Positions 1,272 to 27,258 of a DNA stretch of 64,000 bases are shown here, piece after piece; within the stretch, counting starts at the first letter, position 1, and the number at the start of each line of letters is the position of its first letter. Location of the stretch: contig JACKFR010000002.1 of NCBI GenBank assembly GCA_020632375.1, positions 51,995 through 115,994 on the forward strand, given 5' to 3'. Below the pieces are notes generated by a model that was not told the DNA's origin, did no database searches, and saw nothing but the letters and a program-made list of their open reading frames with translations. The DNA comes from Candidatus Nomurabacteria bacterium (GTDB lineage: Bacteria; Patescibacteriota; Dojkabacteria; SC72; JAHDCA01). The position numbers and the translations under genes are program-made.

Positions 1272-2515
1272 TTTAGTAACTCCTTTCCAAACTCATTCGC
1301 AAGAAACTTGAGGTTTCTCGTCTTGTTCAGATAATGAGATAGTTCGGATAACTTGGCAAGTTTGTTGGGATTGTTTTTTAGTTCTAGTATTTTGTCTACG
1401 AGGCTCTTAAAATCTTTTGTAGTGAAGCTAAAATCTGTTGGATTAATTCCAAGCTTCTCCATCCCCTTCTGCATGTCTTTTGCCTTGGTATATGCAAGTA
1501 ACTTGTCGGAAATTAAGAATGGTTTTTTGTATGCAATCGCCCAGGCTAGAGGGCCACTTGAAGCCATCAGTACCCTGTAGGGCAAGACAATAATATCTGC
1601 ATTAGTAAAGTAGCGGCCTATCGATTCATCGCTCACGAAGCCGGTATGTTGGGTAAATTGGGATTTAGATATGAGCTTTAGAAGGCTTTCGTAGTAGTCG
1701 TCATTATCAAGGTTTATTGTCTTACCGCCAGCCATGATGAGATTAACCTCTTCTGGCCAATCAGGCTCAATTGTTGCTCTCACAATCCAGTCTGCACCCT
1801 TATACCATGTTAAGAATCCGAAAAAGAGAATATTGAACTTCCCCCTTTTTATCTGAGCTGGTGGTGTTAGATCCAGCTTAGTTGAGGGTTGAGGATTGTA
1901 TATAGGGTGTTGAACTACTGATATCTTTGAAGCCTTTGCGAACGGAAGTTTCAAAAGTCTTTCTTTAAACTCTTCCTCTAACAGGAGGATTTTGTTACAC
2001 AAGATTAAAAAGAGGACAAAGTTAAGTTTGATCCCGATACCGTAGATTTTGAGTCTAAAATCTGTCTCAGACATTTGCAGGTGACCCGCCATTTTTGTGA
2101 GATCTTGAAGTGCTGAGTGCTGGATGATTGTAATCTTGTTATGTTTCAGTCTTAAAAGTATAAGGAAGAATGGAAATATTGCAGCAGATTTTGTACCTCC
2201 GAAAACTCCAAAGTCGTAGTTGACAACAACAGAGTGGTATTTCTGTCTTTTAATCTGTTTGAGTGTCGCAAAAATAGAAAGTATCGCGTTTTTATCCCAT
2301 GTTGGGATGATTTTGTTTCCCTTTGTATCATTAAATTCAGCGTTAGGCACAGTCTTGAATTTTTCGCTCAGGATTGTGAATCTAATCGACTCAATTTGAT
2401 CTACGAAGTTCTTTAAATAATATGCAACTCCCCCAACCTTTTCATCAACAAGCTTTTCTTTTGGTGGGTACGAAGATATTACTAAAATCTGTTGCTTGTT
2501 CATTTCCTGTTCCAT
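1268..2515 (-). CDS. Glycosyltransferase, family 4-like
   Basis: 415-aa ORF. The C-terminal half resembles the Glycos_transf_1 fold (…IIVLPYRVLMASSGPLAWAIAYKKPFLISD…). It sits in a glycan-gene neighbourhood. Confidence 0.55.
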   Translation of the reverse strand: MEQEMNKQQILVISSYPPKEKLVDEKVGGVAYYLKNFVDQIESIRFTILSEKFKTVPNAEFNDTKGNKIIPTWDKNAILSIFATLKQIKRQKYHSVVVNYDFGVFGGTKSAAIFPFFLILLRLKHNKITIIQHSALQDLTKMAGHLQMSETDFRLKIYGIGIKLNFVLFLILCNKILLLEEEFKERLLKLPFAKASKISVVQHPIYNPQPSTKLDLTPPAQIKRGKFNILFFGFLTWYKGADWIVRATIEPDWPEEVNLIMAGGKTINLDNDDYYESLLKLISKSQFTQHTGFVSDESIGRYFTNADIIVLPYRVLMASSGPLAWAIAYKKPFLISDKLLAYTKAKDMQKGMEKLGINPTDFSFTTKDFKSLVDKILELKNNPNKLAKLSELSHYLNKTRNLKFLANEFGKELLK

Positions 2516-2562
2516 AGGAAATATAATATCATGAAAGATAGATAAGGTAATAAAGGATTTTA

Positions 2563-3753
2563 ATGAGAATACTATTCATTGCAAATCGCTTTCATCCTGC
2601 TTTTGGAGGGGTTGAAGTGCTTACTAGAGAATATTCTAAAGAGCTGGTGAAGAGAGGCCATCAAGTTACAGTATTTACTACTGATTTTGTCGATACTCAA
2701 GGCAATGAGAGATTTAGTGACGCCAAATCTGACTTCGAGGGTGTTAAGGTACATCGGTTTAAAGGGATAAGGCTAATTAAAGATCCTTTAACATTGGCTC
2801 CAGGTATGTTTGTGGAGCTATTTAAACAAAGGAAGAGCTATGATGTCGCCATGATCTACACTTACGGCTATGCTACTACTTGGATGTCTTCTCTTATGAA
2901 AATGTTTGGACTTATCAGGCTGCCTTTTTTAGGTCTTCCAAACTATGCTCCAAATTATAATTTCCCTTCTTGGCTGGTAAGTTTTTATGATAAAACACTT
3001 GGCAAAATATTCGTAAAAGAAACTGACGTAATCGTAATTCATACTAGAATGTACGAAGATTTCTTTATTGATATGGGACAGGAAAAAGAAGCCCTCCCTA
3101 CCCTCCTACCTATTGTTTTACCAATTCCATACGTAGAGACTGATCATTTACTGTCTACTAGGCAAAAGTATTCAATACCTGAAACTAAGAAACTGATCCT
3201 GTGCTTTGGAAGAGTAGTTGAATATAAGGGCATACAGTTTTTGATCAAAGCATTTGCACAGCTACTAGCTGATACACCTGAAAGATCAAGAGAGCTCCAT
3301 CTAGTTGTCGCTGGCGGAGGAGCATACCAAGGACCGTTGGAAAAACTTGTCGAAGAACTGAAGATTATTAATAATGTGACATTTACTGGACGTGTTTCAG
3401 AGCAAGATAAGAATTCACTATACAGAATGTCTGATCTCTTCTGCTTACTGTCGTATTCAGGGGAATCTTTTGGAATTACATATGTGGAAGCAATGTCTGC
3501 AGGTCTTGCAATACTCGGAAGTAATAAAGGAGCAGTACCTTTCGTTGTGAAAGATCGGTTTAACGGCTATTTGGTTGATCCTTTTAACCATGAGATAGTT
3601 GTTCAAAAGCTGAAGACAATCCTTATTGAATCTAATCTCGAGCTTTTTAAAAAGAATAATCTTACAGACTTTGATAAGTACAGTCCTAAAGTGGTGGTTG
3701 ATTTACTTGAGAAGTATCTAAATCTTGCTGTGGAATCAGCAAAGGGATCATAA
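2563..3753 (+). CDS. Glycosyltransferase family 4 (GT4, retaining)
   Basis: 396 aa. N-terminal RILFIANRFHPAFGGVEV and C-terminal ESFGITYVEAMSAGLAILGS (an EX7E-like motif) are typical of GT4. Confidence 0.8.
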   Translation: MRILFIANRFHPAFGGVEVLTREYSKELVKRGHQVTVFTTDFVDTQGNERFSDAKSDFEGVKVHRFKGIRLIKDPLTLAPGMFVELFKQRKSYDVAMIYTYGYATTWMSSLMKMFGLIRLPFLGLPNYAPNYNFPSWLVSFYDKTLGKIFVKETDVIVIHTRMYEDFFIDMGQEKEALPTLLPIVLPIPYVETDHLLSTRQKYSIPETKKLILCFGRVVEYKGIQFLIKAFAQLLADTPERSRELHLVVAGGGAYQGPLEKLVEELKIINNVTFTGRVSEQDKNSLYRMSDLFCLLSYSGESFGITYVEAMSAGLAILGSNKGAVPFVVKDRFNGYLVDPFNHEIVVQKLKTILIESNLELFKKNNLTDFDKYSPKVVVDLLEKYLNLAVESAKGS

Positions 3754-6559
3754 TCAGAGTATAGAGTAAGACGGAGGCAATGGTTACTAGCACTAGGTAG
3801 CCATAAGAAGAATTTACAACTGTTACAGAACCTTTGTATGAATCTCTAAAATAAAAACCTTGTAGCCAACCATTTATCATTACTGGTTCAGCGATTTCGT
3901 TTAATCCATCTTTAAGCCTAAAGTTTGGGTTGAAGGGAATATTAAATAATATCAAGCTATCTTCTGCCTGGTTAATGTTGTTACTCTCAAGATTTCCAAT
4001 ACTGCTCGAGCTGAAAACAAGGGTTTCATTTAAAAGGTCAGTCCCCTGCATCTGTCCAACTGTCTCTGCATTGTAAGGAAAACTGGAAAGAATGTTACTA
4101 CCGGATAGTTTGATCAGCTTCAAATTTGAAAGCTCCATCTGTGCTGGCTTAGTTGCTCTGTCTAGAAGAGGAGAATTATGCCCAAGCACTATTGTAAATT
4201 CTGGAGAAGCACTATCATATAGGGAGAATACTGTTGAATAAGTATTATGATTCCCCTTAAGGTAGTCTCTCATCGATGGTATGGGAATAATCTGTCTTGT
4301 GAAATTGTCAGTTATGGTTATGTCTGCATCTCCTCTTTCAGAGCGGGTGAAGTCAAATTCTATGTAGTAAGTTCCTTCTACTTTCTCCAGTGGAAGGTCG
4401 AATCTTATAAGACTGAGCTCTTCACTTGCAATGAATTTCCATGTGTCATCGACTAGGTAGGCGTTTATCCCCTCTATATTTAGTTTCTCTGACAAGTTGC
4501 GTGTTGATTTGAACAGGAAGGTTGATTTACCCTCTGGAGACAGCTTGATATCGAGAATATCTGTTGCTTCGGAAAGTGAAAACTCTTGCTCTTCAAAGTG
4601 GAGGTCCGCATTTGGAGGTTGGCTGGATAATTCGTTTCCATTTAATTTGACGTTGTATGGATCTAATAAATAAACTTGTTGTCTGCTTGGTATCTCACAG
4701 TCGTTTATGGTGAACAAAGACTGGGTCTGACTAGTGTCGTAATAACGGTAGCTGGGCTTAATTACTTCATAATCCCCTTTAAACTGAGGCGAGTAAGGTT
4801 GATTTAGACATACAATCTTTCCGGATGCGTTTCGGGTGACACTTGCTGTGACAGTGTTTTCAACATTTCGAATACTGGGCTCGTATTGCTCAGGCTTTAG
4901 TTCTATAACATAAAGATCTTGTTCTCCTGCAGGAGCATTAAACTCTTGCACCTTGTATGGGACTCCTGTGGACCTGACCGTCTCTATGTCCTGGGGGTAC
5001 TTGGTAAGTATAAAGTTGTCTTCAGTTAAATCGAATGAGTCAGTTGTAAGAATTGCCGACTCGTTAATCCATGTGACCCTGTTTAATATATATGGGCTAA
5101 GGAAGTACTCAATCATTGTAGTGTTATTCCACAGTTCGTCGTGAAAGCCGATCCTTAGATGCTGGTAATTAGCATTTTGGGCAATGTACTGGACAGCAGC
5201 CGGGTAATTGTATTCAAATTTTTCAGCCTCTGATTTCTGGTAACTCTCAGAGTATAGGTAAGTGAACGAAATAAAGATATTTATCGCTAGAAAAATGAGA
5301 ATGCCATAATAGAAATGCTTTTTGTGCTTTGTAAAGAAATTGCTACCTAGGGTGGAAAGTAGTGAAAGTGATAGTGGAATAAACATCAGTGCAGGGATAG
5401 TCTTCGCTATTGAGGGGTTGTCAAAATTGGGGAAAAACGGAAGCAGAAGGTAGCTCAAGAAGAGTGAGAGGGCTAATATCTGGCTCATGTCTTTTTTCTT
5501 GAAGGTTTTGTACAGTAAATATAGCCCTCCGAAGTAAAGCGATAGAGTAATAAAACCAAATGGTCCCAAGTTTGTTATCCACCACTGATTGTATTTCGGG
5601 TTTTTGATCTGAAACCAGAGGATATTACTAAGAGGCTGAGCTCCGTTATCGATGCTTGTACCTGTGACAAGAGAATTGGGGCTGATATACGCACCAAGCT
5701 TTTGGAAATAAGTTTTAAATATTAAATCAATCTCTCCTTCTTGGATAAGATACACAACGCTGAATGTGTATCTAACCTGAATTGATTGGTCCTTTCCTAA
5801 ATAACCTTCCACAAGCGGGTATAAGACAAGCGCTATACTTCCAAGTATTAAGAGAATACTGACTGACGTTGCCAGCTTCGAGTTCAAGATTTTTTTCAAG
5901 TGCTTCTTAACCAGATCTCGCTTCAGAAGAATCAGGAGTGTCAGAAAAGAGCCGTAAAAAACTGGAATAAAAAAAACAGACATACCGTGGGTGTATGTAC
6001 TTAGAACGGCAAGAATAATGCCAATGTAAAGATAAATGATATCTGTTTTTTTTGAGTTAAGAAATTTGATGAATGCAAGAATACTCGCTGAAGAGAAAAA
6101 GAGATATCCTGCTATAAGAGGGATATAGTGACTGAAGACGATTGAATATCCGCTTGGTATGAATATTAAGAAAAAAATAAGTCTTTCAACAAGCGGCCTT
6201 CGTAATTCAACCAGTATCTTCCACCAGACGACTGAGGACATAATAAAAAAAAGTGCGCTGGGAATTCTGCCTGCGATAATCATTCCATCTACTGACAATG
6301 TTGTTCTAAAAAGGTCTACTAAGTAATACGCCCAGTAACCGTTTAGAATATAGAAAGCTACGAATTGTCTTATCCCGAAGTTGTTGCTGATACCTTTGGC
6401 TATTATTTCGGGGACTAAAACAGCTCGTAACTGATCGTATTGAACTCCAGGGGGAATATCTAGAATTTTGTAGAACGCTACAAAAATCGATGAGACAAGG
6501 ACCAGAAGGAATAGAATTCGGTCAAGATGCTTGTATTTAATGATGTTCTTAAAATCCAT
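3686..6559 (-). CDS. Large membrane protein. N-terminal multi-TM GT-C-like (PMT/ArnT-like) domain with a roughly 500-aa extracytoplasmic C-terminal domain.
   Basis: 957-aa ORF with roughly 12 or more hydrophobic segments in the first 430 aa. It lies in the glycosyltransferase cluster. Its 3' end overlaps the convergent GT4 gene by 68 nt. Confidence 0.5.
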   Translation of the reverse strand: MDFKNIIKYKHLDRILFLLVLVSSIFVAFYKILDIPPGVQYDQLRAVLVPEIIAKGISNNFGIRQFVAFYILNGYWAYYLVDLFRTTLSVDGMIIAGRIPSALFFIMSSVVWWKILVELRRPLVERLIFFLIFIPSGYSIVFSHYIPLIAGYLFFSSASILAFIKFLNSKKTDIIYLYIGIILAVLSTYTHGMSVFFIPVFYGSFLTLLILLKRDLVKKHLKKILNSKLATSVSILLILGSIALVLYPLVEGYLGKDQSIQVRYTFSVVYLIQEGEIDLIFKTYFQKLGAYISPNSLVTGTSIDNGAQPLSNILWFQIKNPKYNQWWITNLGPFGFITLSLYFGGLYLLYKTFKKKDMSQILALSLFLSYLLLPFFPNFDNPSIAKTIPALMFIPLSLSLLSTLGSNFFTKHKKHFYYGILIFLAINIFISFTYLYSESYQKSEAEKFEYNYPAAVQYIAQNANYQHLRIGFHDELWNNTTMIEYFLSPYILNRVTWINESAILTTDSFDLTEDNFILTKYPQDIETVRSTGVPYKVQEFNAPAGEQDLYVIELKPEQYEPSIRNVENTVTASVTRNASGKIVCLNQPYSPQFKGDYEVIKPSYRYYDTSQTQSLFTINDCEIPSRQQVYLLDPYNVKLNGNELSSQPPNADLHFEEQEFSLSEATDILDIKLSPEGKSTFLFKSTRNLSEKLNIEGINAYLVDDTWKFIASEELSLIRFDLPLEKVEGTYYIEFDFTRSERGDADITITDNFTRQIIPIPSMRDYLKGNHNTYSTVFSLYDSASPEFTIVLGHNSPLLDRATKPAQMELSNLKLIKLSGSNILSSFPYNAETVGQMQGTDLLNETLVFSSSSIGNLESNNINQAEDSLILFNIPFNPNFRLKDGLNEIAEPVMINGWLQGFYFRDSYKGSVTVVNSSYGYLVLVTIASVLLYTLIMIPLLIPQQDLDTSQVNQPPL

Positions 6560-6623
6560 ATTGGATAGATTGTAGTTGAATTGGTTTTATTTGGGAAGTT
6601 TGTGAAAAGGGTAAGAAGAAGGA

Positions 6624-6672
6624 CCCTGCCGCGCGCTGATAAAAATCAGTGTTGCGCTTGTGCGCGGCAGGG
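6624..6672. terminator. Perfect 13-bp GC-rich inverted repeat (CCCTGCCGCGCGC...GCGCGCGGCAGGG, one G-U pair) with a 23-nt loop.
   Basis: Read directly from the sequence. It lies 23 nt downstream of the stop of the minus-strand gene 6695..7342 and is followed on the minus strand by a T/C-rich stretch. It is also the left edge of the GC-rich island. Confidence 0.45.
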
Positions 6673-6694
6673 TTTCTTACTTCTCGGGGTGGGG

Positions 6695-7342
6695 CTAAGG
6701 GAGGAGGAGTGTTGCGACAGTTGGGTCGATCCAGGTACTGCAAAAAGAAGGATCCCCATGCCAATAATTGTCAACCTTTGCCACCTCTTGGATTGGAATG
6801 TTGAACTCCCCCCCCCGGTTTGGGGTTGTGTTGAATCGTTCCCCATCGAGCCAGCTGCAATGGATCTCATCATTGGGGTTGTAGTCAACCAGGAGAAGTC
6901 TCATCGCCTCTGCCCAGGTCGAAACCGTTTGGCATGCTGTGGCGGCACAGAGAGGATTCAGGACACGATTCTCCTGTGCACTTAAGGGGATGTGGTTGAC
7001 CACGAGGACATACCCAACAAACGCAGCAGGTGGAGCTGCAGGACCGCCACCGACGGGGGGGGCTGCAGGGCCACCAACCGTATCGGTAACCTCAGCAGTC
7101 ATAGCTACATCTGTGAGTGTCATGGTTCCACTTCCTTCCAGTATGCCCTCAATCCATCCCTTCAGACTGATGACTTCTGTGTAAGATTCTCTCTCTGTCA
7201 CCACTGTCTCACCATCTATGACCTCCGTAATTTGTACGGGATCGTGCTCGATAGTGATGTGGGCATCGAAAGTGAAAAGGATTGCCATAACCAACGAAAA
7301 CGGGACGACAACGGACCCCAAAACGATTATAAAGCGTCGCAT
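6695..7342 (-). CDS. Secreted or membrane-anchored protein with tandem GGPAAPP repeats (GC-rich island gene).
   Basis: 215-aa ORF. The N-terminal hydrophobic segment RRFIIVLGSVVVPFSLVMAILF looks like a signal anchor. The repeat reads GGPAAPPVGGGPAAPPA. A perfect SD (AAGGAGG) sits 6 nt upstream of the ATG, unlike neighbouring genes. GC is about 55% against about 38% for the flanks. Confidence 0.6.
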   Translation of the reverse strand: MRRFIIVLGSVVVPFSLVMAILFTFDAHITIEHDPVQITEVIDGETVVTERESYTEVISLKGWIEGILEGSGTMTLTDVAMTAEVTDTVGGPAAPPVGGGPAAPPAAFVGYVLVVNHIPLSAQENRVLNPLCAATACQTVSTWAEAMRLLLVDYNPNDEIHCSWLDGERFNTTPNRGGEFNIPIQEVAKVDNYWHGDPSFCSTWIDPTVATLLLP

Positions 7343-7797
7343 TTGATTCCTCCTTAAAGAAATCTCCTATTCTTTGTCCCTGTGACAAAGAATAATTTTT
7401 GTTTGATTTTTTGCTATCCCAAATGGGACACCCAAGAACAGGTGGGTGGGCTTTCGCCTCGCAATCCTTAGTCACCAGATTGATGAACAAAGATTGCGAG
7501 ACAGCCATTGCAAAAGATCGTGGAGGAAGTTCCCCTCTTTTGCCTTATTCCGAGAAGTCTTGCATTAGACAAATAGACTTATATCAAAAGATACAAAGTT
7601 ACTACCTGTATGCAAGTTATGTAAAAGATCGTCTCTTATAAAAGAGACATATCTAAGGGTTTGTAACCCACAGTTATGTCTTTTCTAACGGTATTTTTCA
7701 AAGATCAATCTCTAAGAATACTATACCATTTCCTTTGCCAAACGTCAATACTATAGGGTCTCGGCATACCCCTGTCGTTGTATTGAATTCTTTTTCC

Positions 7798-7842
7798 CGA
7801 TCCGGCTAATTTTTGTTACGCTAGTGCGCATTAGCCGGATCG
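7798..7842. other. Perfect 13-bp inverted repeat CGATCCGGCTAAT / ATTAGCCGGATCG with a 19-nt loop.
   Basis: Read directly. It lies immediately 3' of the methyltransferase ORF on the minus strand. A T5 run precedes it on the plus strand, and there is no T-tract on the side expected for a minus-strand terminator. Confidence 0.35.
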
Positions 7843-7858
7843 GTTCCAAGAGGGTGTG

Positions 7859-8961
7859 TTAGGGGGGAGACCAGGTGGGGAGCCCGGGGGCTGGCCAGGT
7901 GGCGAGGAAAGCTGAGTTGCATGGAACCTCGGAGAGGTCTTGAATGCGAACATTCACATCTCCTCTCTTCGGGAGCCTTTCGCACCATGATACATGTACC
8001 AAGGTGTTTTTTTTGAGGTTGCTTGCGAGAAGAAACCTCTCAACTTGTTCAGCTTCCCAGCCCATTTCCCATTTCCTTTGATCGCTCGGCCCCATGGCGA
8101 GCGATTGGAAGGCTGCTTTTTCTGCTGCTGTCCTTGGTCCCCAACCAAGGTAGCCATTAAAACTCTCTGGGTCAGTTTGCTCCCATGAGATTTTGGGAAT
8201 CGTTAGTGGGAACTCCACTTTAAAACTCCCAATTCTGAGAGCCCCCTTTGGGGCAAACAAAAAAGCCCAGACAGCTCCAGTCAAAAACAAACAAAATAAA
8301 AACATTAACTTCTTGAAGACTGCAGGAAGTGGAAAGTATCCAGCACCAACTATGGATTCTGTTTCGAACTTGTGTAATTCGAAAATTTCTTTAAGCCCAC
8401 GATAAGCGAAGACCCTCATATGCAACCAACTAGGAAATTCTATTTTTTCTCCTCTGTGAAGTGCAAGTGGATTTCCAACGCCCAACCCTTCTCTGCTTGC
8501 CAAACCGAGGCTAAATGGTTGCCATCCGAAGAAAAGAACCCCGATATTTATCCAGCTAGAGAGGTTTTCTGTAGAGGTTATCGCATAGCCACCTGGCTAA
8601 GTACCCTGTAGATTTCACTTATAAATTGGTCAAGATCGCACAGATGCTCAAACACTTGGTTTGAATGAACAACGTCGAAGGTATTGTTCTCCCATGGAAG
8701 CCCCTGGTTGAGGTTACCTAGCTTAGTTTGTACTCCATTTTCTTTCGCTGCAATCTGAAGACGTTCTCCAACAATATCTAGACCGTGGTAATCTTCTGTT
8801 CCTACTATGTTTGCGAGCTTCTTTGTCCATTCTCCATCGTCACATCCAAGATCGAGAAGTTTCGCACTGGGGTTTGGTTCTAGAAGGTCAATAATGTTTC
8901 TTTTATCTAGCTCCAAGGCATTAAAGAACATCTTTTTAAGTGTTGGCTTCATAGTTTGCAT
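7859..8961 (-). pseudogene. Class I SAM-dependent methyltransferase, frameshifted near 8597-8600.
   Basis: ORF 8578..8961 encodes motif I (LLDLGCDDGEW), post-I (HGLDIV) and motif II (FDVVHSNQVFEHL), then ends RVLSQVAMR*. The next frame continues PGGYAITSTENL..., which is the canonical LKPGG motif, into ORF 7859..8503. A 1-nt deletion in CTT-AAG-CCA (now CTTAGCCA) would explain the shift. Confidence 0.55.
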
Positions 8962-9011
8962 ATTGAAAGATATTAGTTGGGAAAGTATACACTAGATGGA
9001 ATAAAAGTTGT

Positions 9012-9057
9012 CCTCCCTCCGAACTATATTTCTCATAGAGGAAAAGTTCGGAGGGGG
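9012..9057 (-). terminator. Rho-independent terminator-like hairpin: CCTCCCTCCGAACT ... AGTTCGGAGGGGG, followed on the minus strand by ACAACTTTTATTCC.
   Basis: Stem of 11 bp plus 2 wobble pairs and a T-rich tail on the minus strand, lying between the small membrane-protein gene and the methyltransferase start. Confidence 0.4.
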
Positions 9058-9067
9058 TGAAAAAGAG

Positions 9068-9271
9068 TTATCTGGAAAGGAAATAGACCACTAGTAAAGC
9101 GATCCCAAGAATCAAGTATGCGTAATACACTTGTTTCCTTTGGAGATTTCTTACGTGCCTTATGGCTATACCTACGAGGGCATATAAAACGAAAAGCCAT
9201 TCCATTTCCATGAGATTCCTCCTCTGGTGCAGTTGTCCTTTCATATGAAAGAGACATGTCTTAAACCACAC
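9068..9271 (-). CDS. Small two-TM membrane protein (hypothetical).
   Basis: 67-aa ORF with two hydrophobic helices, WLFVLYALVGIAI and AYLILGIALLVVYF, separated by a basic loop. The start is uncertain. Confidence 0.3.
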   Translation of the reverse strand: MWFKTCLFHMKGQLHQRRNLMEMEWLFVLYALVGIAIRHVRNLQRKQVYYAYLILGIALLVVYFLSR

Positions 9272-9325
9272 CAGTCAAAGCCATCTCCCTTCCTCGCTAT
9301 AAAAGGTTCTTTAGAATGAGACTGA

Positions 9326-9586
9326 CTACTTCGTCAAAAGCCCTTTAAGCTTGTTTCCGTTGAGAATAAACACCAGTCCGATTATATAAGCAACTACACC
9401 CGCACCGATGATCAAGTCTGAAGCACCTACTAGACCAGTATCAACAGGCTTATGTCCTCCGTATGGAGAATAAGGCGAGTAAGGTGAATATGGAGATCCA
9501 TCTGCAAAAACAGCGCTGGCATTAGCTAAAAAAACAAAGCCAGTTGCCGTTATAATTCCACTAAATTTTGCCAATTTCTTAAACAT
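9326..9586 (-). CDS. Small secreted protein with (SPY)4 repeats and a C-terminal cell-wall sorting-signal-like tail (PVDTG, hydrophobic helix, basic tail).
   Basis: 86 aa. N-terminal signal peptide MFKKLAKFSGIITATGFVFLANASAVFA, then SPYSPYSPYSPY, then KPVDTG-LVGASDLIIGAGVVAYIIGLVFIL-NGNKLKGLLTK. The SPY codons vary synonymously (TCT CCA TAT / TCA CCT TAC / TCG CCT TAT). Confidence 0.5.
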   Translation of the reverse strand: MFKKLAKFSGIITATGFVFLANASAVFADGSPYSPYSPYSPYGGHKPVDTGLVGASDLIIGAGVVAYIIGLVFILNGNKLKGLLTK

Positions 9587-9840
9587 ATTTTTAAGCTATT
9601 AGTTAAGCTGGCTTATTATACGATAGAATATTTGAAAGGTCAATACTATGGGACTGCCCTGCCAGCTTATAGTGTGAGATGTGCTGGTGTGTAGTCGGCT
9701 CATGTCGCTATTGAAAGTTGAACCTGAATCGCTGATTTTCTATTTGACTTTATACTTGGTTAAGCGGTTAAAGCCAAAGGCTTGTCCTATAAAGGTGATT
9801 AATCATGAAGGGGCTAGGTGGCAGAGCACTCCGCCTTTAT

Positions 9841-10140
9841 TTAAGCAAACACTGCTCTTGCTCTGATTATATTTGAGTGGGTATAGAAATCTTCACTGAG
9901 GTTTTTCTGTTTACCGTTATCGTTATTTGAGCGGAACTCATTTAAAGTCATTTCGAAATTATGAACAGCTTTTGCTATGCTGTAATTTAATTTTCTGTTG
10001 TTGATCTCATCTAGTGCCTCTTGGGAGATTGCTATGAACTGCTCTACTCGTTTGTTGTTCTCTTCTTCAAGAAATCTCGCAATTCTTGCGATATTGTTGG
10101 ATAGGTCGAGATTAATTTCCTTTGTCGTTAGTTCGGACAT
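9841..10140 (-). CDS. Hypothetical protein
   Basis: 99-aa ORF. Its start overlaps the stop of the upstream small gene on the minus strand. Confidence 0.45.
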   Translation of the reverse strand: MSELTTKEINLDLSNNIARIARFLEEENNKRVEQFIAISQEALDEINNRKLNYSIAKAVHNFEMTLNEFRSNNDNGKQKNLSEDFYTHSNIIRARAVFA

Positions 10141-10466
10141 AGGTTGAATTCTTTTAATTGTTTATCTACTTCTGATCTTATTTTTGTAGATAGCACTTCT
10201 CGGCTTGGGTTGTTGTCATTTGTCCTTATATTAATAATAGAATCATAGTCTATTATGCCGGACTCAGTGTCTATTCCTTCTCCCCAAAGCGAACTCTGAT
10301 CTGATCAATTTTCAAGTAAAACAGACTCACCTTCAGCATGTCTCTGTCCACCAATCGTCATTATCCTTTTATCAATGTCCACAACGAATTTAAGATACCC
10401 TTCTAGGTCTTTTGAAGCAAGTTCAATATTCTTTTCGGAGGCTGGCTTTTTTAATAAAATTACCAT
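10128..10466 (-). pseudogene. Small conserved protein of about 110 aa (my recollection is a DUF5674-like family common in CPR), interrupted by an in-frame TGA at 10305-10307.
   Basis: My translation is MVILLKKPASEKNIELASKDLEGYLKFVVDIDKRIMTIGGQRHAEGESVLLEN*SDQSSLWGEGIDTESGIIDYDSIINIRTNDNNPSREVLSTKIRSEVDKQLKEFNLCPN. The reading frame is maintained across the TGA. Neither half is in the ORF track because each is under 60 aa. Confidence 0.4.
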
Positions 10467-10556
10467 GCTAGAGTATATCATCTAATGAAACCTCTTTAAC
10501 ACTGATACTTCGTTAGCTGCTGATTGCTGTATTGCGAGAATCCTTCCCACTATAAG

Positions 10557-11444
10557 TTAGCGGAACCGATAATGCCATCCCTCATAAGCATACCCTGTCT
10601 CTTCTTCTTTTCCTTCCGGGTATGACAGTGTAAACCCAAACTTCTCTGCATTTTCTGCAAGCCATTTCGCTGCAGTGGTTGAATTAAACGCTTCCCCTAC
10701 TACGTTTCCTATTTCAGGGGTGCTGAAGTCAACTGCAGTTCCAAGCTGGTGCTCGCTGTGCCCAGGTCTTGCGGATACCTGATCGGTGAGGCTTTGGTTG
10801 CCGCCATTGTATTGGAGCCAATAGTTATATGTGCTTTGCTGGGTTTGGTACGATCGGTATGCGGAGACTATTGTGAGGTCTATTCCATCGTCTTTTGCTG
10901 CCTGGAGCAGGTTTTGGAGTGGTTTGAGAGCTCGTCCCGCTAACCTATAGCCCGAGAAGGTGACTAGATCTGAGGGAACATAGTCAGCCGGTAGCTTGTA
11001 TTTTTTGTTTACTACTACATCTAGGTCGCTTGGGTCGCCTTGGACTGGCAGTATTTCGTCAGGATACTCCCACCAGTTTTTTTCTTCTACGGGGGGAGCT
11101 GTTTCGGCCTCCGTATCAGCTTCTTGTTTTGCGTCGACGCCATCGTTGTTTTGAGGATGTTCGGAAGGAGTATCGGCGCCATGGTTGTTTTGCGACTGTT
11201 CAGACGGTGCTTCCTGCTTTGTTGGCTCTGCTGGTTCTGTTGTCCCAACAGGATTTTCGCTGTCGACCTCTGAAGTGCTTGTGTCGGCAGAAGACTGGGC
11301 GGTCGGTTTCGGGACTTCGCTTTGTACCGGGGAAGCCGAAAGATCCAATACCGGCAAACCTATTGAGATTGATTGACTCAAAAGCCATATTGCCGCGGCA
11401 GTGCTGATTCCGATTAAGGCAATTAGAAGAAGTTTTGCTTTCAT
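10557..11444 (-). CDS. D-alanyl-D-alanine carboxypeptidase, VanY/peptidase M15B family, with a signal peptide and an acidic low-complexity linker.
   Basis: 295 aa. The C-terminal domain carries SAYRSYQTQ, SEHQLGTAVDF and EGWHYRF, which are the VanY zinc-binding motifs (HxxxxxxD, E/WHxR). Confidence 0.75.
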   Translation of the reverse strand: MKAKLLLIALIGISTAAAIWLLSQSISIGLPVLDLSASPVQSEVPKPTAQSSADTSTSEVDSENPVGTTEPAEPTKQEAPSEQSQNNHGADTPSEHPQNNDGVDAKQEADTEAETAPPVEEKNWWEYPDEILPVQGDPSDLDVVVNKKYKLPADYVPSDLVTFSGYRLAGRALKPLQNLLQAAKDDGIDLTIVSAYRSYQTQQSTYNYWLQYNGGNQSLTDQVSARPGHSEHQLGTAVDFSTPEIGNVVGEAFNSTTAAKWLAENAEKFGFTLSYPEGKEEETGYAYEGWHYRFR

Positions 11445-11447
11445 CCC

Positions 11448-12116
11448 TTATCTTTTGGCGTATCTAAAGATTCTTACAGGAGACTCCCAGTAGAGCTTAC
11501 AAGTGTATAGGATGAGATCGGCGTTGTAGTCGGTGATCTCAGTGTTTTCTTCTCCAGCGTAGATCTCGTATTCATATTTACGCTGCCCCCAGATGATTTC
11601 TATTTTGTCGCCGATCTTTGTATCGGGAAGCTTCAGAAATGAGATCTTTTTACGCTGTTCTGAATCCCAGAAAAGTGTCCCCCATCTGTGCGAAGCAATT
11701 ATTGTCGGTGAATCGGTTGTATCTGGTCGCCCGAAGTCTTCGACCACCCATGGCCCTTTTTTTAATGCGCTTTCCCAGTCAGATCCCTGTTGGAGTTCGG
11801 CATCAACTCCTATGCTTGAAATCTTAATGGAATTTGTTTTTGGCAAACTTGGGTCAAAAGGTGGGAGCTCATCTGAGGTATCTTTGTCATCATTGATGTA
11901 TTTTGCCCTTATGTCTGCGAATGTTTTCTGGTCTTTATCTAAATCTCCTGTTAAAGATTTGATCTCATTCTGATAAAGATGGGGAAAGATATTGTACAAA
12001 ACCGACGGCAAGATCGGTGTTAGAATAAGTATCCCGGCTGCTATCCAAAAGATGACCCCTATTCCGACATAGATGTTAAGGACTTTCGATAGTAGTTTTT
12101 TTTGTGACTTTTTCAT
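11448..12116 (-). CDS. Sortase (transpeptidase) with an N-terminal membrane anchor.
   Basis: 222 aa. Has the catalytic His context IIASHRWG, the TLxTC-type Cys motif LILYTCKLY and a downstream conserved Arg (RIFRYAKR). Lies 4 nt upstream of VanY in the same orientation. Confidence 0.7.
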   Translation of the reverse strand: MKKSQKKLLSKVLNIYVGIGVIFWIAAGILILTPILPSVLYNIFPHLYQNEIKSLTGDLDKDQKTFADIRAKYINDDKDTSDELPPFDPSLPKTNSIKISSIGVDAELQQGSDWESALKKGPWVVEDFGRPDTTDSPTIIASHRWGTLFWDSEQRKKISFLKLPDTKIGDKIEIIWGQRKYEYEIYAGEENTEITDYNADLILYTCKLYWESPVRIFRYAKR

Positions 12117-12249
12117 TAAATTCGCAGCGAAAGAGAACTTACTCGGTTAAAGTATTCTAGCATTTCTTTCGATTTGGTGCTGCTGCTGGCTATAGGTTAG
12201 CGTTAATAGGTGCTCTTGCCTAGCTTCAGCCGACTATAAGTTAGCGGGA

Positions 12250-15108
12250 TTAGAGGATTGCCATCGCAGAAACCTTATCCCCTTTTTTTGTGGACATCAC
12301 TTTCACCCCAGATGTTTGCCTACCTAGGGTTGGAATAGAGTTTATTTCAGATCTGATGACCTGGCCTTTTTCTGAGACTACAAATATCTCTGCATCAGGA
12401 TGGTCTAGAACTCTTGCGACTACAACGTTTCCTGTTTTGGCTGTCACTCTGAAAGTATAAATTCCTGATCCACCTCGTCCTTGTCTCCCATACTCATCAA
12501 GCTTTGTCATTTTGCCGTAGCCTTGCTCGGAAAGTGTGAAAAGCTGGTTCTCATTTGCCCTTACAGCGTTCATAGAAATTACTTTGTCATCTTCAAATTT
12601 GAATCGAATGCCTCTGACTCCCCGCGTCGCTCTACCAGTTGGACGAACATCTTTTTCGCTGAACCTTATTGAGCGTCCTTTTGTTGTAACTAAAATTACA
12701 TCATCGTCTCCGTCAGTTGGTGTCACCCACTGCAGCTGGTCGCCATCATCGAGTTTGATTGCAATCAAGCCGCTTGATCGAATTTTTTCAAAGTCTTTTA
12801 TGTCTGTTTTTTTGACTAACCCGGCCTCGGTCGCCATAAAGAGATACTTGAAAGTCTTTGAATCTACGACTTTGCTCTTATCTTGCTTCTCTTGAATTGC
12901 ATCTTCACTCATAAAGCCTTCTTTGTCTTGGGTCAAAACGCTTGTAACTAGCTCATCTTGATCAAGTTGGATAAGATTTACAAGAGGTAGTCCTTTGGCT
13001 GTTCGACTGTATTCAGGTACTTCATAGACTTTTGTCTTGAAAACGCGACCTTTGTTTGTGAAAAGCAAGAGGTTATCATGTGTACGGCATGAAAAGGCAT
13101 GTTTGATAAAGTCTTCTTCTTTTGTCGCTGCGCCCATGACCCCTTTCCCTCCTCTATGCTGAGCTTTGTAAGTGCTTGGCGGAAGCCGTTTTATATATCC
13201 TTCATGGCTGATGCTGACAAATGTTTCTTCATCAGGAACGAGGTCTTCTTCTGCAATCTCGTCGACATTGCCTTTAACAACTTTTGTCCGTCTGTCATCA
13301 CCGTATTTCTCAGCCATTTCTTTTAGCTCCTGGTCGATTACTTTAAGAACTTCTTCTTGGCTAGATAACACTTGGTTATACTCTTTTATTTTTGCTGTAA
13401 CGTCTTTAAATTCATTTTCAAGCTTCTCACGCTCAAGTGCAGCAAGTCTTCTTAGCTGCATATCGAGAATTGCTTGGGCCTGGACTTCAGTAAACTCGAA
13501 CTTGGTGATTAGGTTGTCTTTTGCTTCTTCTTGAGTTTTTGAGCCCCTAATTGTTGAAATAATTTCGTCAATGACATCAAGTGCTTTCAGATAACCTTCA
13601 AGGATATGTCCTCTATAGCGAGCTTGTGCGAGATCGTATTCATATCTTCTTATCGTGACCGTCATCCTGAAGCTCAAAAAGATTTCGAGCATCCGCTTTA
13701 GAGAGAGTGTTTGAGGCTCCTGGTCAACAAGTGAAAGCATGTTTGCATTAAATGCCATTTGCATTTGGGTGTACTTGTATAGCTTGTTAAGAACAGTTTT
13801 GGGCTGAGCGTCTTTTTTGAGGATTACGACTATTCTGATACCTTCCTTAAGGTTTGATTCGTCTCGTAAGTCGGCGATTCCAGTTACTTTCTTATCTTTT
13901 ACCAGGTCGGCAATCTTAGTCAAAAGTGTCGATTTATTGACTTGATACGGGATCTCTGTGACAAGAATATGCATTCTCCCCTTTTCTCCATCAACAATGC
14001 TCGCTTTCGCTCTCATTAATACTCTGCCTCTTCCTGTTGTGTAAGCATCAAGGATATCTTTGCGATTGTATATGGTTCCTCCTGTAGGAAAATCCGGCCC
14101 AGGAACTATCTCAATCAGCTCGTCTGGAGTTATTGCAGAAGAAAACTCAGGATATAAGGTTCTCTCCTCGGCTTCTTCCTCGGGAGACTCATTGAGCCTT
14201 GTTTTTATCTCTGTGACCTTTGTCTCGTAATCCGGGTCTGATGTGTTAACATAATTTTCAAAATAGTCTGCTGGAGTTGAATTGAGAGCCTGTGGGATCT
14301 TTTCTTCTTTCTCCCGTTCCAGTCTCAACTCATTGTAGATCGCATTTCCCTGCCACTTGTTTCCTTTCTTAATCATTTGATGAAGTGCCCCTACTACTTC
14401 ACGAAGGTTGTGAGGAGGTATTTTGGTAGCCATCCCTACAGCAATTCCATCACTTCCGTTACAGACTAGATTGGGGAAGAGCGTTGGCAATATGTCAGGT
14501 TCAACTCTGGTTCCGTCATAGTTTAGCGTGAACGTAACAGTCCCTTTTTCGAGATCTTGAAGCATTAAATTGGTAACTCTTGTCATTCTGGCTTCGGTAT
14601 AACGCATCGCTGCCGGAGGATCTCCGTCAATAGTTCCGAAGTTACCTTGTCCGTCTACTAGTGGATAGCGTGTAGCAAATTTCTGCGCCAACTTAACCAT
14701 CGTCGGATAGATCACCATTTCACCGTGAGGGTGATAGTTACCTGATGTGTCACCTGCGATTTTTGCAGATTTTCTGTAGTTTGCAGTCGGCTGGAGGTTC
14801 AAGTCTTTCATAGCAACCAGTATCCTCCTTTGTGACGGTTTCAACCCGTCTTTTGATTCTGGCAGCGCTCGTGCGACAATTACCGACATTGAGTAGTCGA
14901 GATAATTGCTTTTCATCTCTTTTACAATTGGCTGCTCAACAATTTCGCCAGGATTGAATTTGGGTTTGAAATCTAAAAAGCTGCTACCGTTATTGTCATG
15001 CTGTGAAGTCTCTTCTTCTGATATACTTTCAATATCCGAAATCTGTTGTTCAGTTTGTGCCCTTTCCAGTAGTTCTTCTTTTTTTGAAATTTTCTTTTTG
15101 TCTGCCAT
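12250..15108 (-). CDS. gyrA: DNA gyrase subunit A
   Basis: 952 aa. Contains the GyrA active-site region (…AAMRYTEARM…), GPDFPTGG, and a C-terminal beta-pinwheel with repeated GxxGxG-like blades. An acidic insertion of about 60-90 aa precedes GPDFPTGG. Confidence 0.95.
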   Translation of the reverse strand: MADKKKISKKEELLERAQTEQQISDIESISEEETSQHDNNGSSFLDFKPKFNPGEIVEQPIVKEMKSNYLDYSMSVIVARALPESKDGLKPSQRRILVAMKDLNLQPTANYRKSAKIAGDTSGNYHPHGEMVIYPTMVKLAQKFATRYPLVDGQGNFGTIDGDPPAAMRYTEARMTRVTNLMLQDLEKGTVTFTLNYDGTRVEPDILPTLFPNLVCNGSDGIAVGMATKIPPHNLREVVGALHQMIKKGNKWQGNAIYNELRLEREKEEKIPQALNSTPADYFENYVNTSDPDYETKVTEIKTRLNESPEEEAEERTLYPEFSSAITPDELIEIVPGPDFPTGGTIYNRKDILDAYTTGRGRVLMRAKASIVDGEKGRMHILVTEIPYQVNKSTLLTKIADLVKDKKVTGIADLRDESNLKEGIRIVVILKKDAQPKTVLNKLYKYTQMQMAFNANMLSLVDQEPQTLSLKRMLEIFLSFRMTVTIRRYEYDLAQARYRGHILEGYLKALDVIDEIISTIRGSKTQEEAKDNLITKFEFTEVQAQAILDMQLRRLAALEREKLENEFKDVTAKIKEYNQVLSSQEEVLKVIDQELKEMAEKYGDDRRTKVVKGNVDEIAEEDLVPDEETFVSISHEGYIKRLPPSTYKAQHRGGKGVMGAATKEEDFIKHAFSCRTHDNLLLFTNKGRVFKTKVYEVPEYSRTAKGLPLVNLIQLDQDELVTSVLTQDKEGFMSEDAIQEKQDKSKVVDSKTFKYLFMATEAGLVKKTDIKDFEKIRSSGLIAIKLDDGDQLQWVTPTDGDDDVILVTTKGRSIRFSEKDVRPTGRATRGVRGIRFKFEDDKVISMNAVRANENQLFTLSEQGYGKMTKLDEYGRQGRGGSGIYTFRVTAKTGNVVVARVLDHPDAEIFVVSEKGQVIRSEINSIPTLGRQTSGVKVMSTKKGDKVSAMAIL

Positions 15109-26095: not shown

Positions 26096-26623
26096 ATGAA
26101 AAAATATAAAGGTTTTACACTTGTCGAGCTCTTAATCGTGATGGGAATAATCGCAGTGCTTGCTGTGCTGGGCATCGCGGTAGCGAGATTTGCAATCCAA
26201 AGATCAAATAACATTCAACACGCTGATGCTGTTAGAGAGCTAGTTCATGCTGTTACTCTGTATCACAATGACTACCAAGAGTACCCCGATCCGACTTCAT
26301 TTACAGAACTGGTAACAACATTAGGTACTTTTACTGAAGCATTTGATCCCGGGGCAAACGCATCTTACTATTACTTTGTAAGCACCGACAAACAGAAATA
26401 TTTGATTTGTGTTAGTTATGGTGGGTGGGCCGATGTTGACGACCAAGGAGGTTACTGCGATGGCGAGGGTATTGGTAAGCTTCCTGAGGGAGTGGCTAAT
26501 AAAATTGATGAGAAGCAGCTCGCAAATCCTAAATTTACTAACCGTGTAGAGCTTCGCAAGCAGCTTGGACTGTGGTCAAATTGGGATTCAGATGCAGGGA
26601 CATGGAATGGTGCAGCGGAATAG
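26096..26623 (+). CDS. pilA: Type IV pilin (major pilin candidate), paralog 1.
   Basis: 175 aa. Class III signal K-G-FTLVELLIVMGIIAVLA (N-methylation motif, Glu+5). Confidence 0.85.
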   Translation: MKKYKGFTLVELLIVMGIIAVLAVLGIAVARFAIQRSNNIQHADAVRELVHAVTLYHNDYQEYPDPTSFTELVTTLGTFTEAFDPGANASYYYFVSTDKQKYLICVSYGGWADVDDQGGYCDGEGIGKLPEGVANKIDEKQLANPKFTNRVELRKQLGLWSNWDSDAGTWNGAAE

Positions 26624-26697
26624 TTCAGATCTTGTTGACATTGATCTGGTTTCGCTTTACAGTAAGTATAGAATTAGTTTAAATTAACTGTCCTAAT

Positions 26698-27234
26698 ATG
26701 AATAAGAAAAAACTTTATAAAGGTTTCACTCTTGTTGAACTCCTCATCGTGATGGGAATCATTGCGGTTCTCGCTGTGCTTGGTGTCGCTGTGGCTAGAT
26801 TTGCTATTCAGCGAGCTAACAACATCCAACATTCTGATGCTGTTGATGAGCTTGGAAACGCTATGCAGCTTTATTATGGTGATAAAAGAGAATATCCTAC
26901 AGTTGCAGAATTTACAGATTTTGAAACAGCCCTTGGAGCCTCTGGTGTAATGGGTCAGTATATTGATACATTTGATGCTGGTGGTACTGCAACATATTAC
27001 TACTTTGTGACTAGCGATCAGCAAAAGTACCTACTTTGTGTGAGCTATGGTGGGTCTGATGATGTTGGGAATCAAGGAGGTGGTTGTTCTGGCAATGGAT
27101 TCGGTGATTTACCAACTACGACAACTCCAGCTTCAAATAAGGAGATGGATGCTACTGTTTTTGAATCGATTGTAGTGAATCAAGCTACTTCTGGTGTATC
27201 TCAAGATTGGGATACAGCTAATGGTTGGCAATAA
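26698..27234 (+). CDS. pilA: Type IV pilin, paralog 2.
   Basis: 178 aa. N-terminus is near-identical to paralog 1, and the shared core reads YYYFV(S/T)xDxQKYLxCVSYGG. Confidence 0.85.
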   Translation: MNKKKLYKGFTLVELLIVMGIIAVLAVLGVAVARFAIQRANNIQHSDAVDELGNAMQLYYGDKREYPTVAEFTDFETALGASGVMGQYIDTFDAGGTATYYYFVTSDQQKYLLCVSYGGSDDVGNQGGGCSGNGFGDLPTTTTPASNKEMDATVFESIVVNQATSGVSQDWDTANGWQ

Positions 27235-27258
27235 TGTCAGTTAATATCGGATTCGACT

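Follow-up and report, generated by a model that had tools for sequence, protein, structure and literature searches.

A conserved GC-rich locus upstream of a probable GT-C-type glycosyltransferase gene in Candidatus Nomurabacteria, a likely slot for exchangeable secreted-protein genes

Introduction

The question raised by this locus is whether a short block of DNA that is rich in guanine plus cytosine (GC), and that carries foreign-looking expression signals in an otherwise AT-rich genome, is in fact foreign to that genome. The block lies at about 6.6-8.3 kb of a 64,000-nucleotide stretch (hereafter the window) of contig JACKFR010000002.1 from a Candidatus Nomurabacteria metagenome-assembled genome (MAG; GenBank assembly GCA_020632375.1), and it contains the gene for a 215-amino-acid (aa) protein located directly upstream of the gene for a 957-aa membrane protein. 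A preliminary description made from the sequence alone had interpreted the block as foreign DNA whose insertion disrupted a native gene, or alternatively as an assembly chimera joining two organisms. Based on the comparisons presented here, we consider it probable that the locus is instead a native, conserved expression slot for a variable surface protein, situated upstream of a probable GT-C-type glycosyltransferase gene in a small Nomurabacteria-like clade of tiny, uncultured bacteria of the candidate phyla radiation (CPR). Confidence is high for the architecture of the locus and modest for its function.

Composition of the block

The window has an overall GC of 0.396, and in windows of 600 nucleotides (nt) only three stretches exceed 0.47: 6401-7500 (peak 0.54), 7601-8400 and 10501-11800. 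The strongest tetranucleotide-distance outlier of the 64 kb is 6501-7500 (z 4.1), with 7751-8750 ranking second (z 3.2). The open reading frame (ORF) of the 215-aa protein has a GC of 0.52 compared to 0.40, with values of 0.59, 0.44 and 0.54 at the first, second and third codon positions (GC1, GC2 and GC3), while GC3 of the remaining ORFs is 0.337 +/- 0.042 (z ~4.8). By sliding-window GC, GC3 and tetranucleotide usage, the three statistics proposed in the preliminary description, the block is therefore an outlier. The single GC-rich island drawn there at 6560-8200 does hold the strongest composition outliers of the window, but it consists of two pieces, at about 6600-7350 and 7800-8280, which are split by approximately 450 nt (7350-7800) of native GC (0.37-0.39).

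The same locus in relatives

Homologues of the 957-aa protein were detected at 37-41% identity (five) and at 33% identity (one), and five of the homologous loci reach upstream of the large gene (L086, L088, L090, L091 and L093). At all five, the gene directly upstream and in the same orientation encodes a 183-356-aa protein carrying either a signal anchor or a lipobox (ITAC, LGAC, LSAC, IGGC), and this small gene is richer in GC than the surrounding locus (Table 1). Counting the two copies in the window (0.52 and 0.50 vs 0.41), the offset is positive in seven of seven cases (sign test p ~0.008), and judged by eye, GC3 of the small genes climbs with host GC3 across the six genomes. Each small gene of the relatives is preceded by a strong Shine-Dalgarno (SD) sequence (GAGGAGG, AAAGGAGG or AAAGGAG) and has a long hairpin (-24 to -60 kcal/mol) downstream, and a TATAAT-like box is found 6-8 nt before the ATG of the large genes, most clearly in L086, L088, L090 and L093. 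The wider gene order is shared as well, running from gyrA through VanY and a small membrane protein with SPY/GPY repeats to the slot, the large gene, and GT4 and GT1 glycosyltransferase genes.

As the SD sequence, the hairpin and the GC excess recur at all of the relatives' loci, the features that look foreign in the window are conserved properties of the locus. A GC-rich small secreted-protein gene with an SD sequence and a hairpin lies at this position in five of five relatives, an outcome that the preliminary description had itself named as refuting, and its disruptive insertion of foreign DNA is not supported as stated.

Cassette exchange between conserved flanks

The most direct view of how the small gene varies comes from L088 and L090, whose large proteins are 85% identical. 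Their DNA matches at 83-84% until 7 nt short of the start codon of the small gene, and the similarity resumes 35-70 nt after its stop codon, with no similarity between these conserved flanks (L088 5948-6842 vs L090 6198-6841). With unrelated coding sequences lying in flanks that are ~84% identical, the coding sequence behaves as a swappable cassette. In addition, the SD sequence and the downstream hairpin fall inside the conserved flanks and are kept while the coding sequence differs, indicating that they are not features imported from a donor. The L090 cassette is instead homologous to that of L086 (E 1e-50, ~62% identity over 117 residues), a genome whose large protein is 44.6% identical to that of L090.

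These comparisons demonstrate, at the level of sequence, that cassettes have been exchanged between lineages of the clade within a conserved native slot, and lateral replacement of the cassette in the window is plausible. At least three cassette types can be distinguished: type A, comprising the two copies in the window and the two domains of the L088 protein (z 7.5-9.7); type B, comprising L086 and L090; and the L093 cassette, which was linked to neither. The L091 cassette perhaps belongs to type A (z ~3.5).

Table 1 Features of the locus in the window and composition of the corresponding loci in relatives
Feature	Position	Strand	Description
957-aa polytopic membrane protein	3686..6559	-	Conserved anchor gene of the locus; hypothetical protein H6764_01410
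-10-like TACAAT box	6569..6574	-	9 nt before the 957-aa ATG; implies a near-leaderless transcript
Hairpin H1	6623..6673	-	3' of the 215-aa gene; GC-rich stem of 12 bp, perfectly paired; GCGCACAAGCGCAACA (6650-6665) apical; -36 kcal/mol, z -6.4
Cassette 1	6695..7342	-	215-aa signal-anchored protein: N-terminal beta-rich part, GGPAAPP x2 linker, ~110-aa C-terminal domain
Shine-Dalgarno AAGGAGG	7349..7355	-	6 nt before the 215-aa ATG; kept in L086, L088, L090, L091, L093
5' leader	7343..7712	-	370 nt of native GC; near-perfect hairpin chain (including 7368-7394 and 7458-7500); folding z -9.8
Conserved leader hairpin	7624..7650	-	ATGTCTCTTTTATAAGAGAC then GATCTTT; 96% identical over 27 nt to L088
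Promoter-like region	7720..7757	-	Box CCTATAGTATTGAC (7744-7757, with -35 TTGACG), 17-nt spacer, TG-extended -10 TATAGT (7720-7725)
Hairpin H2	7797..7843	-	3' of cassette 2; 14-bp perfect stem; loop motif GCGCACTAGCGTAACA (7814-7829); -33 kcal/mol, z -7.4
Cassette 2	7859..8305	-	148-aa ORF, ATG at 8305; hydrophobic N-terminus MFLFCLFLTGAVWAFLFA; GC 0.50; shares the reading frame of the methyltransferase remnant
Class I SAM methyltransferase pseudogene	8306..8961	-	Pfam Methyltransf_11/25/31; alignment with 230-250-aa homologues
Mini-module	9015..9257	-	Second copy of the leader-hairpin motif (9235-9257), AGGAGG, 47-aa ORF with two transmembrane helices (9068-9211), hairpin H3 (9015-9055)
86-aa membrane protein gene, SPY repeats	9326..9586	-	Preceded by CCCATAGTATTGAC-N17-TATAAT box (9639-9652)
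L086			Small-gene GC 0.57 vs locus 0.41; GC3 0.69 vs large-gene 0.37
L088			Small-gene GC 0.62 vs locus 0.515; GC3 0.74 vs large-gene 0.65
L090			Small-gene GC 0.64 vs locus 0.49; GC3 0.77 vs large-gene 0.62
L091			Small-gene GC 0.47 vs locus 0.33; GC3 0.44 vs large-gene 0.25
L093			Small-gene GC 0.51 vs locus 0.31; GC3 0.55 vs large-gene 0.21

Two paralogous cassettes in the window

The two GC-rich pieces of the window each contain a cassette. The C-terminal ~110 residues of the 215-aa and 148-aa proteins align over their full length, as far as both stop codons, at 26% identity (pairwise BLASTP E 2e-4), and the local alignment of these regions reaches z 7.5 against composition-preserving shuffles. 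By the same measure, the C-terminal part of the 148-aa protein matches the first domain of the 284-aa protein of L088 (z 7.9), and the two domains of that protein match each other (z 9.7). These alignments show that the two pieces are paralogues in sequence. The 215-aa ORF had been regarded as the only clear gene inside the block, a view that is corrected here, as the GC-rich DNA at 8278-7859 holds a paralogue of its C-terminal domain.

The translation of cassette 1 (deposited as hypothetical protein H6764_01415 of the Candidatus Nomurabacteria MAG, on a 184-kb contig) has a hydrophobic N-terminus, together with the signal anchor and GGPAAPP repeats that were originally described for it. Cassette 2 has no promoter, leader or SD sequence of its own and encodes a predicted signal-anchored protein; it is probably a second copy that is silent or decaying.

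Homology searches with the 215-aa protein, as suggested in the preliminary description, returned only the protein itself, both in a word-indexed search of 5.8 billion proteins and in an exhaustive HMMER search of 1.84 billion representatives, making it an orphan. One further match, P0041, was dismissed as a tandem-repeat artefact. The 148-aa protein yielded no homologue other than cassette 1 and the L088 domain. Pfam gave zero matches for every cassette protein, SLH included, and zero matches were found to phages (tblastn) or plasmids (blastn). A single-sequence AlphaFold2 (AF2) model of the 215-aa protein had a predicted local distance difference test (pLDDT) score of 45, which is too low to use.

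Expression signals of the slot

The strong SD sequence of the 215-aa gene is exceptional in the window, as had been noted from the sequence. An SD core of at least 5 nt is present at -20 to -4 in 5 of 53 ORFs, and GGAGG precedes only the 215-aa ORF and a 47-aa ORF starting at 9211. A TATAAT-like box lies 4-9 nt before the start codon of at least 12 ORFs (e.g., 18804, 45384, 54742, 58732 and 6559), which suggests that leaderless or SD-independent initiation is widespread in this organism.

The perfect hairpins reported to bracket the block were likewise found, at 6623-6673 (H1) and 7797-7843 (H2), each of them 3' of a GC-rich piece. Their apical motifs (GCGCAC[A/T]AGCG[C/T]AACA) agree at 14 of 16 nt, and H1 is presumed to be a terminator or a 3' stabiliser of the mRNA. 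Of the 12 short-range inverted repeats in the whole window, four fall in 6.6-7.85 kb, and a fifth is located at 9015-9055.

Upstream of cassette 1, a promoter-like region matches the consensus at 10 of 12 positions plus the TG extension. Exact copies of its 14-mer box CCTATAGTATTGAC occur in the window only at 7744-7757 and at 9639-9652, the latter before the 86-aa gene. In the consensus form CCYATAGTRT(TGAC), this locus-specific box was also observed in L088 (5541), L090 (5798), L091 (3867, 4283 and 9834), L093 (514) and L087 (8162), and across several genomes it precedes cassette leaders, 86-96-aa SPY-repeat genes and GT2 genes of the same envelope cluster. This distribution hints at a common regulator or sigma factor for the box-bearing genes.

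Between the promoter-like region and cassette 1 lies a structured leader of native GC, with its 5' end placed by the promoter match; in the relatives, 400-900 nt without any ORF occupy the corresponding position. One leader hairpin is present in all five relatives with compensatory changes in its stem (GTCTCTT/AAGAGAC, GTCTTTT/AAAAGAC and GTC-CTTTT/AAAAGGAC), and its 96% match to L088 contrasts with the 37% identity of the neighbouring large proteins. The consensus ATGTCTYTTT-loop-AARRGAC followed by TCTTTWA was located at 7624-7650 and 9235-9257 of the window and in L086 (126-156), L088 (5705-5733), L091 (4349-4380) and L093 (815-851). A purine-rich segment further upstream (~7687-7676, AGAAAAGACATA), found in four genomes, is able to pair with the 5' arm of the hairpin instead. 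This suggests alternative leader structures, in sequences too few for statistics, and the hairpin may serve as an attenuator or a 5' stabiliser.

Searches of the window and the relatives against Rfam, using gathering and E-value thresholds, matched no family. A scan of viral contigs for the leader hairpin gave four matches representing two distinct sequences, which is about the number expected by chance from a rough estimate, and neither had a matching context. In L086, positions 300-1078, between the conserved hairpin and the small gene, form a 780-nt GC-rich (0.50-0.55) stretch without a credible ORF, with GNRA/UUCG-type hairpins, a folding z of -10.3 and no Rfam match. No decayed cassette was found in it by tblastn with the cassettes, and it may represent a large structured leader RNA or a decayed cassette of an unknown kind.

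Taken in order, these features outline how such a slot could operate. The locus would supply the fixed signals: a promoter box is followed by a highly structured leader of 370-900 nt that includes the conserved hairpin, then by a strong SD sequence, which is rare in these largely SD-less and often leaderless genomes, and the series closes with a long hairpin. A short gene for a signal- or lipid-anchored extracellular protein would lie between the SD sequence and that last hairpin. The small gene would evolve fast and be swapped between lineages by recombination in the conserved flanks, such that its alleles are often unrecognisable. In the window, one expressed copy (215 aa) would be accompanied by a paralogue of 148 aa that lacks a promoter and borders on a decaying methyltransferase gene, which it truncates. 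The cassette protein would probably be abundant and located at the cell surface.

The adjacent membrane protein

An AF2 model of the 957-aa protein built from a six-sequence alignment (pLDDT 62) contains at least 12 transmembrane helices and a beta-rich C-terminal half. The best Foldseek matches in the PDB were AftD (6w98/6wby) and AglB (3wak) with E ~1e-5 and TM-scores of only 0.24-0.29, and the C-terminus matched carbohydrate-binding module (CBM) folds; there was no Pfam or PDB match by sequence. On this model, the protein probably belongs to the GT-C-type glycosyltransferases and carries CBM-like beta-sandwich domains at its C-terminus. Genes of the GT4, GT1 and GT2 families adjoin it. The 957-aa and 215-aa genes have separate predicted promoters and a hairpin between them, and their conserved adjacency is the one observation that points, with modest strength, to a functional link in which the cassette protein would be a glycosylation substrate or partner.

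Possible causes of the GC excess

Coding GC is 0.398 for the host and 0.526 for cassette 1, and the amino acids of the cassette written in host codon usage would give 0.453. Approximately 40% of the excess thus stems from amino-acid composition (more Ala, Gly, Pro, Thr and Val, with less Lys, Asn and Ile) and approximately 60% from synonymous choice, with GC3 of 0.53 observed vs 0.33 expected, and the relatives are alike in this respect. C-ending codons rise most and do so consistently, while G-ending codons rise less consistently, an asymmetry that favours codon-level selection over pure biased gene conversion. Three candidate causes come into question: selection tied to expression or to the stability of the mRNA, conversion biased towards GC at a hot spot of recombination, and import, on repeated occasions, from donors richer in GC.

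The last of these, in the form of a recent lateral replacement, would have brought the 215-aa coding sequence, and perhaps the 148-aa copy, from a GC-richer donor by way of the conserved flanks, leaving its GC not yet drifted to that of the host. This explanation overlaps with the native slot, the two differing solely in how old the allele is and in what raised its GC. It draws on the cassette exchange demonstrated in the relatives, on the GC3 of 0.54 compared to 0.34 in the host, and on the existence of 49-52% GC genomes in the same clade. However, seven of seven cassettes stand above host GC, even in the GC-richest hosts (0.62-0.64 vs 0.49-0.52), and none below; with offsets that are all positive and cassette GC3 rising with host GC3, import alone fits poorly. 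In addition, no donor was detected among the 5.8 billion or 1.84 billion proteins, phages or plasmids searched, and the SD sequence and hairpin belong to the flanks. We regard recent replacement as a possible explanation of the window's cassette, though not the one we would expect to hold.

It is rather unlikely that repeated recombination has raised the GC of a native slot through GC-biased gene conversion at a hot spot, with neither import nor selection on expression involved. The slot is a demonstrated target of recombination, and both G and C are up at fourfold sites in most cassettes. The linker of the VanY-like protein, which is also GC-rich, holds all 13 of the differences between assemblies in a tract-like arrangement. 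Against this, C is up far more than G, G does not rise in L091 or in the NNR codons of several cassettes, and the leader between the two cassettes of the window keeps its native GC.

The linker itself accounts for the third GC-rich patch of the window (10.5-11.8 kb), being the N-terminal linker of a VanY-like carboxypeptidase (10557..11444, minus strand). It shares the bias towards C-ending codons and contains all of the differences between assemblies that were compared position by position: 13 mismatches between L001 and the window, all at 10875-11161 and 12 of them within 120 nt. They fall in GC-rich, low-complexity sequence and could reflect a recombination tract or a difference in repeat collapse. 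The number of mismatches is similar in L084 (13) and L085 (12).

The methyltransferase pseudogene and remaining alternatives

The right-hand edge of the block had been described as a frameshifted methyltransferase gene with its 3' half in GC-rich DNA. The frameshift is real. The N-terminal half of this S-adenosylmethionine (SAM)-dependent methyltransferase corresponds to the ORF at 8578..8961 (minus strand), and its C-terminal half follows in another frame after the loss of 1 nt near 8597 (YRVL|xPGGYAI). The same frameshift is present in two Logan assemblies (L001 and L084) and in an ENA contig (L085) from another BioSample (SAMN08389225), and its recurrence in a separate BioSample identifies it as a real mutation in a true pseudogene. 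However, both the frameshift and the true 3' half of the gene (8306-8596) sit in DNA of normal GC, with the frameshift ~320 nt from the GC boundary, and the GC-rich part assigned to the gene is the cassette paralogue. Homologues align through "GAGYFPLPAVFKKL", beyond which there is at best a chance-like match at "FLT"; where cassette 2 begins, the terminal ~16 residues (DPRHAAFLTxKxRK) have been lost, and no homologue was found for the remaining ~135 residues of the fused ORF (8278-7859, GC-rich).

These observations bear on the reading of the block as a classical genomic island, a one-off foreign insertion disrupting the methyltransferase gene, which we consider very unlikely. The atypical composition fits it, as does a gene that is both frameshifted and cut by ~16 codons exactly where the GC-rich DNA starts. 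Nevertheless, the same anomaly is found at the same position in all relatives, and the two GC-rich paralogues are split by a conserved native leader, with the frameshift lying 320 nt away in native DNA. Furthermore, there is no integrase or transposase among the neighbouring genes (glycosyltransferases, methyltransferase, VanY, DUF5674 and ORFs without Pfam matches), no direct repeats flank 6.6-8.3 kb, and the only tRNA gene is at 49.4 kb. What survives of the original proposal is cassette-level exchange between lineages and the ~16 codons that the methyltransferase loses at cassette 2; insertion of an island as a single event does not, given counterparts at the same locus in all relatives, an SD sequence and hairpin that lie in conserved flanks, and a frameshift that lies elsewhere.

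GC-rich islands in AT-rich genomes often encode structured non-coding RNA, and an RNA in place of proteins would suit the GC-rich DNA here, the long ORFs also present on the opposite strand, and the folding of the L093 cassette (z -4.6). This is highly improbable, as there is no Rfam match, the 215-aa region has a folding z of -1.3, every locus combines an SD-ATG start and an open frame with a signal or lipobox at the N-terminus, and L086 and L090 are conserved at the protein level (E 1e-50). Finally, a metagenome misassembly of two organisms, suggested by the sharp composition change only, has a negligible probability: the MAG contig and two independent per-run Logan assemblies, whose contigs span window positions 1-12780 (SRR12358676) and 2578-11328 (SRR12358675), agree at every position over 6.5-8.7 kb, with 0 gaps, such that the supposed chimeric join is reproduced exactly in three assemblies, and the native leader within the block carries motifs common to the relatives, in an architecture kept in five other genomes.

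Comparison with known systems

In their expression features, surface-layer (S-layer) or major surface-protein genes of Gram-positive bacteria are among the closest parallels to the proposed slot. Those of Lactobacillus have efficient or double promoters, a long stabilising 5' untranslated region (UTR), biased codons and extra silent copies (PMC3666127). The slot resembles S-layer genes such as Lactobacillus slpA, with its silent slpB, in having signals that correspond to their strong, possibly tandem promoters, long structured 5' UTR, codon bias and strong terminator around a secreted product, and also in their silent copies nearby, high variability between relatives and frequent linkage to glycosylation genes (PMC3666127). 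The corresponding values at the slot are a leader folding z of -9.8, an AAGGAGG sequence, a -36 kcal/mol hairpin and a GC3 of 0.53 vs 0.33, with the transcription start placed by prediction. The codon shift differs from that of S-layer genes in being a large increase in GC that the pilin genes do not share, and no inversion or recombinase system was seen.

Variable surface-antigen loci, including those of Borrelia host-interacting lipoproteins and of capsule or O-antigen switching, undergo allelic cassette replacement between conserved flanks. The slot is alike in its conserved flanks, unrelated coding sequences, sharp boundaries and cassette similarity that is discordant with the neighbouring genes (L088/L090 and L086/L090), and unlike in that its unit is a single small gene, its expression signals stay with the locus and its alleles have a consistent GC offset. 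We know of no report of alleles with a consistent compositional offset from the host at surface-antigen loci.

Other systems share fewer features with the slot. Genomic islands have a similar local anomaly in GC and tetranucleotides and a neighbouring pseudogene, in combination with the mobility genes, tRNA and direct repeats that this locus does not have. Integron cassettes similarly consist of a short, often orphan ORF with an imperfect-palindrome hairpin, with two tandem units and a composition unlike the host; at the slot, however, the hairpin stays in the flank and the SD sequence is supplied, now or formerly, by the locus. An integron was rejected, as no integrase occurs among the annotated neighbours, no RYYYAAC/GTTRRRY cores were seen in the hairpins by eye, and the hairpin lies in the flank. 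Diversity-generating retroelements (DGRs) are common in CPR bacteria, and their targets are likewise secreted proteins with a C-terminal region that varies fast and a hairpin behind it, but here the whole coding sequence differs rather than adenine-specific sites. A DGR was also rejected, as no direct repeat resembling a template/variable repeat (TR/VR) pair was found in the 64 kb, where a reverse transcriptase was not specifically searched for among all ORFs. The cassettes show no strain-level variation across four assemblies.

Several observations weigh against the locus being a conserved slot for a variable surface protein. The comparison covers six genomes, with no close sibling of this organism found in the contig and metagenome scans (nothing was found in genome contigs with the 957-aa protein, and one new locus was found in metagenomes with its family). 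Among the cassette types, phmmer detected only the L086-L090 pair, with the other links depending on shuffle-tested local alignments, and the three or four types may be unrelated, with position and composition alone in common. The 215-aa cassette itself may be a recent import. The transcription start and leader depend on consensus matches, and the GT-C assignment on a model with a pLDDT of 62 and TM-scores of 0.24-0.29. The 215-aa coding sequence folds no better than shuffles (z -1.3), which weakens an explanation of its GC by mRNA structure, and the pilin and ClpP genes have no bias towards C-ending codons; with the pilins assumed to be highly expressed, this weakens simple translational selection. 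S-layer proteins are abundant, lattice-forming and typically 40-200 kDa, with a cell-wall anchoring domain. The cassette proteins are 15-38 kDa, signal-anchored or lipoproteins, and have no SLH or other Pfam domain, which speaks against counting them as S-layer proteins in the strict sense.

With these points considered, the conserved-slot reading is still the one we favour, and on this reading the locus would be a slot for variable secreted proteins, with conserved RNA signals, of a kind not described before. What is unusual about it is that the cassettes keep a consistent GC offset although the genomes range over 28-52% GC, and that it uses one of the few strong SD sequences of the genome. 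A more far-reaching version is offered tentatively, in which a dedicated slot, with its locus-specific promoter box, large leader containing a switch-like hairpin, strong SD sequence and terminal hairpin, has a special regime of translation and stability, unrelated secreted or lipoprotein cassettes shuffled into it are held GC-rich by selection or biased conversion, the whole constitutes an undescribed system of surface variation, and the leader represents a new class of cis-regulatory RNA. Under this version, the variation could govern how episymbiotic bacteria attach to their hosts or evade phages.

CPR/Patescibacteria presumably have a lifestyle of attachment to other microorganisms, and their surface proteins are almost wholly uncharacterised. 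The combination of rare expression signals, an exchanged secreted cassette and an adjacent probable GT-C gene would make the locus a strong candidate for the major variable surface determinant of these cells, possibly with a role at the interface with a host or phage, and a concrete handle for studying such interactions. The locus also serves as a caution for composition-based detection of horizontal gene transfer and chimeras, as a sharp GC island with foreign-looking signals can be conserved and native, and its consistent GC offset offers a natural setting in which import, selection and biased gene conversion could be told apart as sources of local GC content.

Neighbouring genes and minor observations

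The methyltransferase family is spread over CPR, Actinomycetes, DPANN and others at ~50% identity. A scan of genome contigs with the methyltransferase alignment gave 80 distant loci in many phyla, with alignments extending beyond residue ~231 in two only, and was uninformative for synteny. In L006, L011, L012, L013, L032, L040, L057 and L065, the tblastn span of the gene is ~1.1-1.4 kb instead of ~0.68 kb, suggesting tandem copies or an interrupted methyltransferase gene in these unrelated genomes.

Upstream of the pseudogene, the mini-module at 9015-9257 resembles a miniature of the slot, with a strong AGGAGG before a 47-aa ORF that starts MEMEWLFVLYALVGIAIRHV. The 86-aa gene beyond it has counterparts of 91-96 aa near the slot in relatives (L088 3870-4145, L090 4126-4401 and L091 3883-4173). 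Members of this family have a signal peptide, a threefold (S/G)PY repeat, a C-terminal transmembrane helix and no Pfam match, lie next to a sortase gene in L088 and L090, and may be sortase substrates or subunits of a surface fibre. Further along the window, three paralogous type IV pilin-like genes (26096-28891, plus strand) have the region of the N-terminal methylation motif in common (direct-repeat families D1/D2), and their codons are more AT-biased than average.

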